Part shown: positions 42,747-51,708 of the stretch, one piece after another
Numbering within the stretch: position 1 is the first letter of the stretch
Layout of the letters: each line of letters opens with the position of its first letter
Assembly (NCBI RefSeq): GCF_030013205.1
Contig: NZ_CP122648.1
Length of the DNA: 64,000 bases
Direction: 5' to 3' (one strand)
DNA from: Escherichia coli
Lineage (GTDB): Bacteria; Pseudomonadota; Gammaproteobacteria; Enterobacterales; Enterobacteriaceae
Notes under the pieces: model-generated
Seen by the model: the letters and a program-made list of their open reading frames with translations, nothing else
What the model was told of the DNA's origin: nothing
Database searches by the model: none
Made by a program: the position numbers and the translations under genes

Positions 42747-43772
42747 TTGAGTTTGATAATCTCACTTACCTCCACGGTAAACCGCAAGGCACCGGGCTGC
42801 TGAAAGCCAATCCGGAAGACTTTGTGGTGGTGGAAGATTTGGGCTTTGAGCCTGATGGTGAAGGTGAGCATATTCTGGTTAGAATCCTCAAAAACGGCTG
42901 CAATACCCGTTTTGTGGCGGATGCACTGGCGAAATTCCTGAAAATTCATTCCCGTGAAGTCAGCTTCGCTGGGCAAAAAGACAAACATGCTGTTACGGAA
43001 CAGTGGTTATGCGCTCGCGTGCCGGGCAAGGAAATGCCCGATCTGAGCGCCTTTCAACTGGAAGGCTGCCAGGTGCTGGAGTATGCGCGGCACAAGCGCA
43101 AGCTGCGTTTAGGCGCGCTGAAAGGTAACGCCTTTACCCTGGTTCTGCGCGAAGTGAGCAATCGCGATGACGTTGAACAACGTCTGATCGATATTTGCGT
43201 AAAAGGCGTGCCTAACTATTTTGGTGCCCAACGTTTTGGGATTGGCGGTAGCAACTTGCAGGGCGCGCTGCGCTGGGCGCAAACCAATACTCCGGTGCGC
43301 GATCGCAATAAACGGAGTTTTTGGTTGTCGGCAGCCCGCAGTGCGTTGTTTAATCAGATTGTTGCTGAGCGCCTCAAAAAAGCAGACGTTAATCAAGTTG
43401 TTGACGGCGATGCGCTACAATTAGCCGGACGTGGTAGCTGGTTTGTCGCAACCACCGAAGAACTGGCGGAATTACAGCGTCGCGTCAACGATAAAGAGCT
43501 GATGATAACCGCCGCATTGCCGGGCAGTGGCGAATGGGGAACTCAGCGTGAAGCGTTGGCATTCGAACAAGCAGCTGTCGCCGCAGAAACTGAATTACAA
43601 ACCTTACTGGTGCGCGAAAAAGTTGAAGCCGCGCGCAGAGCGATGCTGCTGTATCCGCAACAATTAAGCTGGAACTGGTGGGATGACGTCACCGTAGAAA
43701 TCCGTTTCTGGCTTCCGGCGGGTAGTTTTGCAACCAGCGTTGTCAGGGAACTTATCAACACAACAGGTGATT

Positions 43773-46495: not shown

Positions 46496-47488
46496 ATGAG
46501 TCAGAATACGCTGAAAGTTCATGATTTAAATGAAGATGCGGAATTTGATGAGAACGGAGTTGAGGTTTTTGACGAAAAGGCCTTAGTAGAAGAGGAACCC
46601 AGTGATAACGATTTGGCCGAAGAGGAACTGTTATCGCAGGGAGCCACACAGCGTGTGTTGGACGCGACTCAGCTTTACCTTGGTGAGATTGGTTATTCAC
46701 CACTGTTAACGGCCGAAGAAGAAGTTTATTTTGCGCGTCGCGCACTGCGTGGAGATGTTGCCTCCCGCCGCCGGATGATCGAGAGTAACTTGCGTCTGGT
46801 GGTAAAAATTGCCCGCCGTTATGGCAATCGTGGTCTGGCGTTGCTGGACCTGATCGAAGAGGGCAACCTGGGGCTGATCCGCGCGGTAGAGAAGTTTGAC
46901 CCGGAACGTGGTTTCCGCTTCTCAACATACGCAACCTGGTGGATTCGCCAGACGATCGAACGGGCGATTATGAACCAAACCCGTACTATTCGTTTGCCGA
47001 TTCACATCGTAAAGGAGCTGAACGTTTACCTGCGAACCGCACGCGAGTTGTCCCATAAACTGGACCACGAACCAAGTGCGGAAGAGATCGCAGAGCAACT
47101 GGATAAGCCAGTTGATGACGTCAGCCGTATGCTTCGTCTTAACGAGCGCATTACCTCGGTAGACACCCCGCTGGGTGGTGATTCCGAAAAAGCGTTGCTG
47201 GACATCCTGGTCGATGAAAAAGAGAACGGTCCGGAAGATACCACGCAAGATGACGATATGAAGCAGAGCATCGTCAAATGGCTGTTCGAGCTGAACGCCA
47301 AACAGCGTGAAGTACTGGCACGTCGATTCGGTTTGCTGGGGTACGAAGCGGCAACACTGGAAGATGTAGGTCGTGAAATTGGCCTCACCCGTGAACGTGT
47401 TCGCCAGATTCAGGTTGAAGGCCTGCGCCGTTTGCGCGAAATCCTGCAAACGCAGGGGCTGAATATCGAAGCGCTGTTCCGCGAGTAA
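46496..47488 (+). CDS. rpoS: RNA polymerase sigma factor RpoS (sigma-38)
   Basis: 330 aa from the ATG at 46496 ([14 protein letters not shown]); sigma-70-family regions 2 to 4; no premature stop. Confidence 0.95.
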
Positions 47489-47503
47489 GTAAGCATCTGT
47501 CAG

Positions 47504-47540
47504 AAAGGCCAGTCTCAAGCGAGGCTGGCCTTTTTCTTTT
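47504..47540 (+). terminator. rpoS intrinsic terminator
   Basis: aaaggccagtctc-aagc-gaggctggccttt followed by ttctttt. Confidence 0.7.
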
Positions 47541-47607
47541 GGTTGGGGAGCCGGTGTGTTTGTGGGCTGGATAAGCCGCAATAGCGTCTCATCCGGCAAT
47601 TTGCACC

Positions 47608-48015
47608 CTATGTGTTCATCATCTTGCGCACTAGCTGCATAAACAGCTCCTGCTCTTCTCCACTCAAACGCCCCAAAAATTCCTCATCCACGCTGTCACC
47701 TATCGGTATCGCCGCAGCAAGTATCTTTTCGCCTTCGGCAGTCAGCCAGACAAAGCGTCGCCGCTTGTCAGCGGCGTCATGTTCACGTCTGACTAAGCCA
47801 CGATTTTCCATTCTTGCCAACATTTCTGCCAGCGTTGCTTTGGTGCTGACGGCTGCTTCCATCAGTGCCACCTGTTCGATACCAGGTTTATCAGCAATGG
47901 CGCGCATCACCGCGTACTGTGGTTTGGTCAGATCAGGTAACTCGTGCTGCCAGCGGGCCGTGTGTTGCTGAAAAAGCTGTCGTAACTGATGGAACGCTTT
48001 ATTTCGTAACGCCAT
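47608..48015 (-). CDS. MarR-family transcriptional regulator (SlyA-like)
   Basis: 135-aa ORF with winged-helix MarR region; divergent from the decarboxylase operon. Confidence 0.75.
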   Translation of the reverse strand: MALRNKAFHQLRQLFQQHTARWQHELPDLTKPQYAVMRAIADKPGIEQVALMEAAVSTKATLAEMLARMENRGLVRREHDAADKRRRFVWLTAEGEKILAAAIPIGDSVDEEFLGRLSGEEQELFMQLVRKMMNT

Positions 48016-48110
48016 GTAAACTCCGGGCTAATTCTCTGTCGCTATCATAGCGGTTTTTCAGTGACGAAGAAGATGTTGTTACTTTTCAATCCTTGCCGCT
48101 GTGGAAATGA

Positions 48111-48124
48111 AGGAGTATGTTAAT
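48111..48124. promoter_or_regulatory. perfect 14-bp palindrome, candidate operator
   Basis: gttcgtatacgaac is its own reverse complement; lies in the 146-bp divergent intergenic region, 38 bp upstream of the ecdB ATG. Confidence 0.45.
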
Positions 48125-48161
48125 AATAACGTTCGTATACGAACAATTAAGAGAGTAAGCA

Positions 48162-48755
48162 ATGAAACTGATCGTCGGGATGACAGGGGCTACCGGTGCG
48201 CCTCTTGGTGTGGCATTACTGCAAGCGCTGCGGGAGATGCCGAATGTCGAGACTCATCTGGTGATGTCGAAGTGGGCGAAAACCACTATTGAACTGGAAA
48301 CGCCTTACAGCGCTCGCGATGTTGCCGCCCTCGCAGACTTCAGCCATAACCCGGCGGATCAGGCGGCGACTATCTCTTCCGGCTCCTTTCGTACCGACGG
48401 CATGATCGTTATTCCATGCAGTATGAAAACGCTCGCCGGTATCCGCGCTGGTTACGCCGATGGCCTGGTGGGGCGCGCGGCGGACGTCGTGCTCAAAGAA
48501 GGCCGCAAACTGGTGCTGGTGCCGCGTGAAATGCCGCTTAGCACAATCCATCTCGAAAATATGCTCGCACTTTCGCGCATGGGCGTGGCGATGGTGCCGC
48601 CGATGCCTGCCTTTTATAACCATCCCGAAACGGTAGATGACATTGTCCACCACGTGGTAGCCCGCGTGCTGGATCAATTTGGCCTCGAACATCCTCACGC
48701 CAGGCGCTGGCAAGGATTGCCGCAGGCCCGGAATTTTTCTCAGGAGAATGAATAA
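48162..48755 (+). CDS. ecdB: UbiX-family flavin prenyltransferase, decarboxylase subunit B
   Basis: 197-aa ORF MKLIVGMTGATGAP, UbiX/Pad1 fold. Confidence 0.85.
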   Translation: MKLIVGMTGATGAPLGVALLQALREMPNVETHLVMSKWAKTTIELETPYSARDVAALADFSHNPADQAATISSGSFRTDGMIVIPCSMKTLAGIRAGYADGLVGRAADVVLKEGRKLVLVPREMPLSTIHLENMLALSRMGVAMVPPMPAFYNHPETVDDIVHHVVARVLDQFGLEHPHARRWQGLPQARNFSQENE

Positions 48756-50182
48756 TGGCATTTGATGATTTACGCAGCTTTTTACAGGCGCTTGATGACC
48801 ACGGCCAGTTACTGAAAATCAGCGAAGAGGTGAACGCGGAACCGGATCTGGCAGCCGCAGCCAACGCCACCGGGCGTATCGGCGACGGCGCGCCCGCGCT
48901 TTGGTTTGATAATATTCGCGGCTTTATCGATGCCCGCGTGGCAATGAACACCATCGGTTCCTGGCAGAACCACGCGATTTCCCTCGGCCTGCCGCCAAAC
49001 ACCCCGGTTAAAAAACAGATTGATGAGTTTATCCGCCGCTGGGATAACTTCCCCATTACCCCGGAGCGCCGCGCCAATCCAGCCTGGGCGCAGAACACCG
49101 TCGATGGCGACGAGATCAACCTGTTCGATATTCTGCCGCTGTTTCGTTTAAACGACGGTGATGGCGGTTTCTATCTCGATAAAGCGTGCGTGGTTTCCCG
49201 CGATCCGCTCGACCCGGATAACTTCGGCAAGCAGAACGTCGGCATCTACCGCATGGAAGTGAAGGGCAAACGTAAGCTCGGCCTGCAACCGGTGCCGATG
49301 CACGATATCGCTCTGCATCTGCATAAAGCGGAAGAACGCGGTGAAGATCTGCCGATTGCCATCACCCTGGGTAACGATCCGATCATCACCCTGATGGGCG
49401 CCACGCCGCTGAAATACGATCAGTCTGAGTACGAAATGGCGGGCGCGCTGCGCGAAAGCCCGTACCCGATCGCCACCGCCCCGCTGACCGGTTTTGATGT
49501 GCCGTGGGGCTCGGAAGTGATCCTCGAAGGGGTTATCGAAAGTCGTAAACGTGAGATTGAAGGGCCGTTCGGTGAGTTTACCGGCCACTACTCCGGCGGG
49601 CGTAACATGACCGTGGTGCGTATCGATAAAGTCTCTTACCGTACCAAACCGATTTTCGAATCGCTCTATCTTGGTATGCCGTGGACCGAAATCGACTACC
49701 TGATGGGGCCTGCCACCTGCGTGCCGCTGTATCAGCAACTGAAAGCCGAGTTCCCGGAAGTGCAGGCGGTAAACGCCATGTACACCCACGGCCTGTTGGC
49801 GATTATCTCCACCAAAAAACGCTACGGCGGCTTTGCCCGCGCGGTGGGCCTGCGTGCAATGACCACGCCGCACGGTCTGGGCTACGTGAAGATGGTGATT
49901 ATGGTCGATGAAGACGTTGATCCGTTCAACCTGCCGCAGGTGATGTGGGCGCTCTCCTCGAAAGTGAACCCGGCAGGCGACCTGGTGCAGTTGCCAAATA
50001 TGTCCGTGCTGGAACTCGACCCTGGCTCAAGCCCGGCGGGGATCACCGACAAGCTGATTATCGACGCCACCACGCCTGTCGCCCCGGACAACCGTGGTCA
50101 CTACAGCCAGCCGGTGGTGGATTTACCGGAAACCAAAGCCTGGGCTGAAAAACTGACCGCTATGCTGGCCGCACGTAAATAA
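48755..50182 (+). CDS. ecdC: UbiD-family aromatic acid decarboxylase, subunit C
   Basis: 475-aa UbiD-like ORF, start overlaps the ecdB stop. Confidence 0.85.
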   Translation: MAFDDLRSFLQALDDHGQLLKISEEVNAEPDLAAAANATGRIGDGAPALWFDNIRGFIDARVAMNTIGSWQNHAISLGLPPNTPVKKQIDEFIRRWDNFPITPERRANPAWAQNTVDGDEINLFDILPLFRLNDGDGGFYLDKACVVSRDPLDPDNFGKQNVGIYRMEVKGKRKLGLQPVPMHDIALHLHKAEERGEDLPIAITLGNDPIITLMGATPLKYDQSEYEMAGALRESPYPIATAPLTGFDVPWGSEVILEGVIESRKREIEGPFGEFTGHYSGGRNMTVVRIDKVSYRTKPIFESLYLGMPWTEIDYLMGPATCVPLYQQLKAEFPEVQAVNAMYTHGLLAIISTKKRYGGFARAVGLRAMTTPHGLGYVKMVIMVDEDVDPFNLPQVMWALSSKVNPAGDLVQLPNMSVLELDPGSSPAGITDKLIIDATTPVAPDNRGHYSQPVVDLPETKAWAEKLTAMLAARK

Positions 50183-50192
50183 GGAGAACAAG

Positions 50193-50429
50193 ATGATTTG
50201 TCCACGTTGTGCTGATGAACAGATTGAAGTGATGGCGAAATCGCCGGTAAAAGATGTCTGGACAGTCTATCAGTGCCAGCATTGCCTCTATACCTGGCGC
50301 GATACCGAACCGCTTCGCCGCACCAGCCGCGAACATTACCCGGAAGCGTTTCGTATGACGCAGAAAGACATTGATGACGCGCCAATGGTGCCGAGCATTC
50401 CGCCGCTGCTGGCGGAAGGTAAGCGTTAA
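50193..50429 (+). CDS. ecdD: small zinc-ribbon subunit D of the phenolic acid decarboxylase
   Basis: 78-aa ORF with CPRC ... CQHC motif; third gene of the UbiX/UbiD cluster. Confidence 0.7.
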   Translation: MICPRCADEQIEVMAKSPVKDVWTVYQCQHCLYTWRDTEPLRRTSREHYPEAFRMTQKDIDDAPMVPSIPPLLAEGKR

Positions 50430-50465: not shown

Positions 50466-50718
50466 CTCATTACTTTATTTTATAAAATGACAGCCGCCCG
50501 CTTTTCGGCGATCCGGTATCAATATAAATCTGGTTTGCGAACGTCTGAATGTTATCAAACATCATATGTCCAAATATAAAATAATCAGCGCCGTTTATTT
50601 GTTGTAACTCGCCATTAAGCGATTTCTGCACACGATCAACAGGCCAGAGTAATTCTCTCTCCGCTATTTCTTTGCCAAAGAGATATTCACTCCCCGGATA
50701 ATCGGTAATGACTCCAAC

Positions 50719-51222
50719 TTACTGATAGTGTTTTATGTTCAGATAATGCCCGATGACCTTGTCATGCAGCTCCACCGATTTTGAGAACGACAGTGACTTC
50801 CGTCCCAGCCTTGCCAGATGTTGTCTCAGATTCAGGTTATGCCGCTCAATGCGCTGAGTATAACGCTTGCTGATAACGTGCAGCTTTCCCTTCAGGCGTG
50901 ATTCATACAGCGGCCAGCCATCCGTCATCCATACCACGACCTCAAAGGCCGACAGCAGGCTCAGAAGACGCTCCAGTGTGGCCAGAGTGCGTTCACCGAA
51001 GACGTGCGCCACAACCGTCCTCCGCATCCTGTCATACGCGTAAAACAGCCAGCGCTGACGTGATTTAGCACCGACGTAGCCCCACTGTTCGTCCATTTCA
51101 GCGCAGACAATCACATCACTGCCCGGTTGTATGCGCGAGGTTACCGACTGCGGCCTGAGTTTTTTAAGTGGCGGAAAATCGTGTTGAGGCCAACGCCAAT
51201 AATGCGTGCACTGGCGCGACAT
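50719..51222 (-). CDS. insB: IS1 transposase InsB reading frame
   Basis: 167-aa ORF overlapping insA; the InsAB' transposase is made by -1 frameshifting. Confidence 0.9.
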
Positions 51223-51416
51223 CCGACGCCATTCATGGCCATATCAATGATTTTCTGGTGCGTACCGGGCTGAGAGGCGGCGTAAGTGAACTGTAGTTGC
51301 CATGTTTTACGGCAGTGAGAGCAGAGATAGCGCTGATGTCCGGCGGTGCTTTTGCCGTTACGCACCACCCCGTCAGTAGCTGAACAGGAGGGACAGCTGA
51401 TAGAAACAGAAGCCAC
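51141..51416 (-). CDS. insA: IS1 protein InsA
   Basis: 91-aa [45 protein letters not shown]. Confidence 0.95.
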
Positions 51417-51708
51417 TGGAGCACCTCAAAAACACCATCATACACTAAATCAGTAAGTTGGCAGCATCACCGTCGGCTTCAGGGCAAAAAGAGAGTTGAT
51501 GTAAGCGGGATTGTAATAATTGATAGTCACCATGAATATCACCAACGGCCCATATATGGCGATAGTGATGGGCATTGATTTTTTGATAGCGTGTAGATGG
51601 CATGGTTTTACCCTGTAAAATAAGCTTTCCTATTATACAGGGTATTTTTATTTGATTCGTCAGTTGTCGTTAATATTCCCGATAGCAAAAGACTATCGGG
51701 AATTGTTA

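Follow-up and report, generated by a model that had tools for sequence, protein, structure and literature searches.

Known HosA and related MarR-family systems

In the E. coli archetype of the family, MarR acting at marO, a winged-helix dimer binds a (pseudo)palindromic operator, is autorepressed, and is derepressed by phenolic ligands, for example salicylate. In marO two sites overlap the -35/-10 elements and the RBS of marRAB; MarR itself is encoded inside the operon that it regulates. HosA, the regulator of the locus described here, differs in having a single site downstream of the predicted transcription start and in being encoded divergently from its operon. PcaV of Streptomyces coelicolor is a protocatechuate-responsive MarR dimer whose palindromic operator lies in a divergent spacer and which is released by a hydroxybenzoate-type ligand. 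PcaV is distant from HosA in sequence, uses another operator, and serves beta-ketoadipate genes instead of a UbiD/UbiX decarboxylase. Among solved structures, PcaV (PDB 4FHT/4G9Y) was the closest non-HosA homologue, with E=5.8e-16. In the bagremycin and ferroverdin clusters of Streptomyces, the MarR regulators BagL/FevM adjoin BagM/FevK (UbiX) and BagN/FevL (UbiD). BagL/FevM and BagM/FevK were the best NCBIfam matches of HosA and of decarboxylase subunit B, at 88 bits (cut-off 230) and 342 bits (cut-off 420), respectively; both scores were below the curated cut-offs, and the two proteins are therefore not members of these families. These neighbourhoods suggest that an association of MarR, UbiX and UbiD genes recurs outside Enterobacterales.

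The closest described system is the hosA-HAD locus of E. coli UMN026. As summarised in two preprints, Roy & Ranjan (2016, Biochemistry, PMID 26818787) reported that HosA of this strain represses the HAD (hydroxyarylic acid decarboxylase) operon and itself, and that 4-hydroxybenzoate (4-HBA) binds HosA, breaks its DNA binding and induces the operon. The same summaries place the palindromic site downstream of the transcription start site, which suggested a steric block to RNA polymerase. A link of HosA to fliC has also been reported. EPEC HosA was described as 'predominantly monomeric' in solution in one preprint, and the rpoS-mutS island carrying hosA, pad1 and yclC has also been described in the literature. 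Cao et al. (2018, Sci Adv, PMC6261655) used synthetic DNA with the '14-bp TFBS of HosA', which they called palindromic. Binding of HosA to this TFBS was demonstrated by EMSA and BLI, 4-HBA released it, and the KD of HosA (UMN026) for 4-HBA was 4.74 uM by ITC. The site has been reused in biosensors (Cao et al. 2018, PMC6261655; Liang et al., Nat Commun 2019, PMC6694116), and 4-HBA sensors based on Cas12a and Argonaute reuse it as well.

The oligos in table S1 of PMC6261655 read ...TAATAATAAC-GTT(T)CGTATACGAAC-AATTAAGAGAATAAACA..., with the flanks ...CAGAGGCGTATTTTAATAATAAC-(site)-AATTAAGAGAATAAACA.... Oligo T_H of this table contains the exact 14-mer GTTCGTATACGAAC, and the oligo flanks are those of the natural AR0372/WCHEC040047 allele class, whose site is this 14-mer. 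In several other places the table prints the HosA site as the 15-letter GTTTCGTATACGAAC, including on both strands of a complementary pair. The same string on both complementary strands needs a palindrome and the text says 14 bp, so the 15-letter form is a typing error; oligos copied from this table should have GTTTCGTATACGAAC checked against the natural 14-mer GTTCGTATACGAAC.

The hosA-decarboxylase locus and its palindrome

The window, the whole stretch of E. coli DNA that was analysed, is 64,000 nucleotides long. The locus lies in the variable rpoS-mutS island; for a strain that is identical over the query, RefSeq annotation gives the gene order nlpD, rpoS, hosA, B, C, D, pphB, mutS. Of 5426 complete E. 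coli genomes, 2404 carried the island, in each case on the chromosome. The regulator, the operon and the palindrome are as follows.

47608..48015, minus strand: hosA, MarR-family winged-helix repressor of 135 aa (identity to PDB 8AGA, NCBIfam MarR-type models, RefSeq MarR family annotation)
48131..48144, no strand: HosA operator as assigned from sequence, identity to the published TFBS and conservation; perfect 14-bp palindrome GTTCGTATACGAAC with arms GTTCG/CGAAC and a variable centre YRYR
48162..48755, plus strand: subunit B, EcdB/VdcB, UbiX-type flavin prenyltransferase, first gene of the operon (NCBIfam VdcB NF041206, 312 bits, cut-off 290; RefSeq)
48755..50182, plus strand: subunit C, EcdC/VdcC, UbiD-type decarboxylase (NCBIfam VdcC NF041204, 789 bits, cut-off 650; RefSeq)
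50193..50429, plus strand: subunit D, EcdD/VdcD (NCBIfam VdcD NF041205, 121 bits, cut-off 30; RefSeq)

In a full-length alignment with PDB 8AGA, 'Transcriptional regulator HosA', 132 of 135 residues of the regulator were identical (E=6.9e-84), and three residues of the window's protein, M52, I98 and G119, differed from the crystallised EPEC protein. The regulator also matched several MarR-family NCBIfam models (E=2.5e-6 for the MarR model) and many solved MarR-family chains. By these matches the divergent MarR gene is identified as hosA, and the family models identify the operon product as the B, C and D subunits of a non-oxidative hydroxyarylic acid decarboxylase. Compared with the UMN026 system, the locus has the same regulator, the same 14-bp palindrome with its flanks, the same position before the first decarboxylase gene and the same rpoS-mutS island. 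Nothing essential differs: the spacer of the window is a different allele, and its HosA is three residues off the EPEC crystal protein.

Two further elements were observed around the genes. A 768-bp copy of IS1 at 50704-51471, with the insA/insB ORFs on the minus strand and imperfect terminal inverted repeats at 50703-50726 and 51449-51472, splits pphB. Of this 657-nt gene, a 5' part of ~132 nt (51472-51603) and a 3' part of ~234 nt (50470-50703) are left, and ~291 nt are gone beside the insertion; in the otherwise identical strain CFSAN018748 pphB is intact. Between the convergent genes rpoS (ending at 47488) and hosA (ending at 47608) there is a strong terminator-like hairpin with a 15-bp stem and plus-strand T-runs (47502-47535), which is probably the rpoS terminator and possibly bidirectional.

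The initial annotation had reported a perfect 14-bp palindrome at 48111-48124, 38 bp upstream of the ecdB ATG. The palindrome itself is real: GTTCGTATACGAAC is exactly self-complementary and occurs once in the window, at 48131-48144, and positions 48111-48124 read AGGAGTATGTTAAT. The reported coordinates were 20 nt too low, and the gap to the ATG at 48162 is therefore 17 nt (48145-48161, AATTAAGAGAGTAAGCA), within which lies a Shine-Dalgarno-like AAGAGAG. The palindrome does lie, as had been described, between the divergent genes, in the 146-bp spacer that separates the minus-strand MarR gene (ATG at 48015) from the plus-strand three-gene decarboxylase operon. The perfect dyad and the MarR-family regulator fit together, the two-fold symmetry being that expected for a dimeric winged-helix protein.

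Palindromy alone is unexceptional at the scale of the window, where 7 perfect palindromes of at least 14 bp were observed against 5.5 expected from first-order Markov shuffles. The chance of one such palindrome within the 146-bp spacer was ~0.0125. A search across the window for further copies of the 14-mer with at most 2 mismatches found none, and a search for half-site-rich regions or extra copies returned a single 3-mismatch match at 43555, which is at chance level. The site is taken to be more than chance because of its conservation and the published binding data.

Conservation and placement of the site

Within E. coli, the 14-mer was invariant in 8 of 8 alleles whose spacers diverge to 87% identity. 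The block GTTCGTATACGAACAATTAAGAG was unchanged in these eight representative alleles, and the 40 nt upstream carried many substitutions; position 48130, directly 5' of the palindrome, was C or T. Against the allele class that the published oligos match, the spacer allele of the window showed ~89% identity. With a 34-nt probe that has the site at its centre, each of 2380 E. coli genomes gave exactly one copy, with an identity of at least 99% in 1696, 95-99% in 641 and 90-95% in 43. The sampled probe variants carried C-to-T at 48130, and strain 2013C-3264 also had GTTCGTATGCGAAC, a change at a central position. In E. coli 15.TR.026_OXA (L007, NZ_CP032145.1 3126891-3127274), a copy of IS26 has taken the place of hosA and of the spacer as far as a point just before the -35 region, and promoter, operator and vdcB are intact. 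Without hosA at another site, this operon copy would escape repression; two places in the record match.

A scan of one genome per species yielded 80 loci with HosA relatives (58-98% identity) from ~25 genera of Enterobacterales. The hosA gene was divergent from vdcB in 71 of these, and in 8 vdcC came first, vdcB being absent there. In 79 of the 80 loci, the first decarboxylase gene was preceded by the palindrome with no more than 2 mismatches. In loci with adjacent vdcB, the end of the site lay 15-24 nt from the vdcB ATG, or 35-36 nt in Rahnella. The arms GTTCG/CGAAC were intact in 74 of the 79 sites: positions 2-5 and 10-14 were invariant in all 79, position 1 was G in 74 and A in 5, and other substitutions occurred only at the central positions 6-9. 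The centres were TATA (32), TACA (23), TATG (10), TGTA (8), CATA (4) and TGTG (2), giving the cross-genus consensus GTTCG-YRYR-CGAAC. Only 27 of the 79 sites were perfect palindromes, so it is the arms, not the overall symmetry, that are constrained. The mean majority-base frequency was 0.95 over the site, 0.49 in the 100 nt upstream and 0.65 in the next best 14-nt window.

Rahnella perminowiae (L084, 2240-2500) has the only hosA homologue locus that no decarboxylase operon adjoins, which makes it a natural loss control; its site had decayed to GTTCTTATGAGAAT. A transporter gene takes the place of the operon there, with an MFS-type transporter further upstream.

A generic sigma-70 scan of 47480-48300 at a threshold of 9/12 called no promoter. 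Across species, the motif TTGnnn-N17-TAnnnT was found in 78 of the 80 sequences, with a 17-bp spacer in 77, and it ended 7-10 nt before the palindrome. Its hexamers in the window are as follows.

48093..48098, plus strand: predicted -35 hexamer TTGCCG of the decarboxylase operon, from cross-species conservation
48116..48121, plus strand: predicted -10 hexamer TATGTT of the decarboxylase operon, from conservation, 9 nt before the palindrome

These hexamers match the promoter consensus at 8 of 12 positions, which is weak. They predict a transcription start near 48128 and would place the operator at about +4 to +17, in agreement with the literature summary of a site downstream of the transcription start site. 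As far as secondary descriptions and oligo tables go, the site is consistent with the published footprint and start. The palindrome had been described as sitting where an operator is expected; this held for its location in the spacer, and the site would lie downstream of the predicted start, not between the -35 and -10 hexamers.

We consider it highly probable that the palindrome is the HosA operator that represses ecdBCD/vdcBCD until 4-hydroxybenzoate is present. By sequence, the palindrome at 48131-48144 is identified as the published 14-bp HosA binding site. A HosA dimer would place one winged-helix domain on each of the arms GTTCG/CGAAC and, bound at about +4 to +17, would sterically stop RNA polymerase from initiating at or leaving the promoter, so that the operon would be off. 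The predicted geometry fits a model in which bound HosA keeps RNA polymerase out of the initiation region by steric hindrance. 4-Hydroxybenzoate, which is a substrate of the encoded UbiX/UbiD-type decarboxylase, would bind HosA, DNA affinity would be lost and the operon would be transcribed. What the present analysis shows is the identity of the protein and of the site with the published one, its strict conservation, and its fixed position by a promoter-like motif. Binding and release by 4-hydroxybenzoate were published by others, for the same 14-mer and UMN026 HosA. The exact transcription start, and the choice between a block of initiation and one of escape, are what we infer.

Since the site, the repression and the release by 4-HBA have been published, the element, the protein and the ligand are already known. 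The proposal that the palindrome is an operator of the adjacent MarR repressor was thus supported, the protein being HosA and the site its published and conserved 14-bp palindrome, and release by a phenolic acid is borne out by the published release of HosA from DNA by 4-hydroxybenzoate. The experiments suggested in the initial annotation have essentially been done already in the published HosA work, and its proposed check, conservation in orthologous spacers, gave a strongly positive outcome in the 8 E. coli alleles and in 79 of 80 Enterobacterales loci.

Alternative readings and hosA autorepression

The same operator could instead mainly control hosA, or both divergent promoters, with ecdBCD repressed by occlusion of an opposite-strand promoter overlapping the palindrome. 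The preprints do report autorepression of hosA, and the E. coli spacer has only this one site. Against this stands the position of the best conserved candidate for the hosA -10 hexamer.

48040..48052, minus strand: conserved inverted repeat CGCTATcATAGCG containing TATGAT, the probable hosA -10 hexamer (conservation; predicted function)

The repeat lies 25 nt upstream of the hosA ATG, and TAT[CG]AT, the core of GCTAT[C/G]ATAGC, was found 33-37 nt before the hosA ATG in 69 of 72 loci. TATGAT (48049-48044, minus strand) is therefore described here as the probable -10 hexamer of hosA. Its distance from the palindrome is ~90 bp, and relative to the putative start of hosA the E. coli operator is ~100 bp upstream. 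Furthermore, the site keeps its 15-24 nt to the first decarboxylase ATG (35-36 in Rahnella), and its distance to hosA varies with the length of the spacer, which is 145-211 bp and in one case 598 bp. With these observations, control directed mainly at hosA is very unlikely. A hosA promoter overlapping the palindrome was also sought by eye and was rejected; its hexamers matched poorly (3/6), and the conserved TATSAT near hosA was the better -10 candidate. How the operator position would serve the reported autorepression is not obvious; this could reflect either another hosA promoter or an indirect effect.

The palindrome could also act as an RNA hairpin in the ecdB 5' leader, with a 5-bp stem and a UAUA loop, affecting stability or translation in place of binding a protein as DNA. 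With a start near 48128 the palindrome would be transcribed, a hairpin GUUCG-UAUA-CGAAC is predicted at -4.9 kcal/mol, and on the minus strand a T-rich run comes after the palindrome, which a scan marked as resembling a terminator. However, the fold was no better than that of shuffled sequences (z=0.14; 98 of 200 shuffles folded as well), and it leaves the Shine-Dalgarno sequence and the ATG free. In five Rahnella sequences (three with adjacent vdcB, two with vdcC first) position 1 changed from G to A and position 14 had no compensating change. The RNA role was rejected because of this z-score, the free ribosome-binding site and the uncompensated Rahnella change; the published direct binding of HosA to this DNA (PMC6261655) also counts against it, and we give it little probability.

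That the palindrome arose by chance and has no function of its own, as the near-expected number of palindromes in the window would allow, has next to no probability and is effectively refuted by conservation and the published EMSA/BLI binding (PMC6261655): the arms are kept across ~25 genera in spacers otherwise ~49% conserved, the position is fixed with respect to the start codon and promoter motif, and the site decays only where the operon is lost.

A second copy in the Klebsiella/Enterobacter group and significance

A second, imperfect copy of the HosA operator, mostly GATCGTRTRCGAAC, was found in 34 of the 79 loci (L014, L018, L023, L025-L027, L030, L031, L035, L037-L040, L042-L045, L047, L049-L057, L059-L061, L066-L068, L070). 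Its right arm CGAAC was invariant and its left arm degenerate. Among the carriers are Klebsiella, Enterobacter, Kluyvera, Leclercia, Lelliottia, Pluralibacter, Pseudocitrobacter and Phytobacter diazotrophicus. Relative to the proximal site, the copy is offset upstream by a constant 56-57 bp; its end is 4 nt short of the TTG of the -35 hexamer, and it spans about -53 to -40. By our own calculation, a match with at most 3 mismatches is expected by chance in ~0.4% of 100-nt spacers. The second copy was absent from the orthologous hosA spacers of Escherichia (145-147 bp long), of Salmonella (169 bp) and of most Citrobacter (157-172 bp); spacers with it were mostly 169-174 bp, and those of the three groups that lack it were up to ~25 bp shorter. 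In E. coli, GTTGTTACTTTTCA at 48075-48088 was considered as a remnant of the distal site; it matched at 5 of 14 positions overall and 5 of 7 in the left half, was indistinguishable from chance and was rejected. We lean slightly towards the distal copy being a second HosA operator, in which case two operators would bracket the decarboxylase promoter in these genera. No description of such a two-operator arrangement was found in the literature searched. The second copy lies outside the window, and the verdict on the palindrome is unchanged.

The palindrome of the window is thus a correct but ordinary and already characterised HosA operator. As a discovery it matters little: the HosA/4-hydroxybenzoate switch is published and is used in several in-vitro biosensors. 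The present analysis adds the corrected coordinates, the cross-genus consensus, the predicted geometry of the decarboxylase promoter and the evidence for the two-operator variant in Klebsiella and Enterobacter. The consensus GTTCG-YRYR-CGAAC shows which positions are constrained, a help in designing sensors and in searching for the regulon (search string GTTCGYRYRCGAAC). If HosA binds the distal copy, the genera that carry it would possibly gain tighter repression or autoregulation of hosA, and Escherichia, Salmonella and most Citrobacter would use only one operator.
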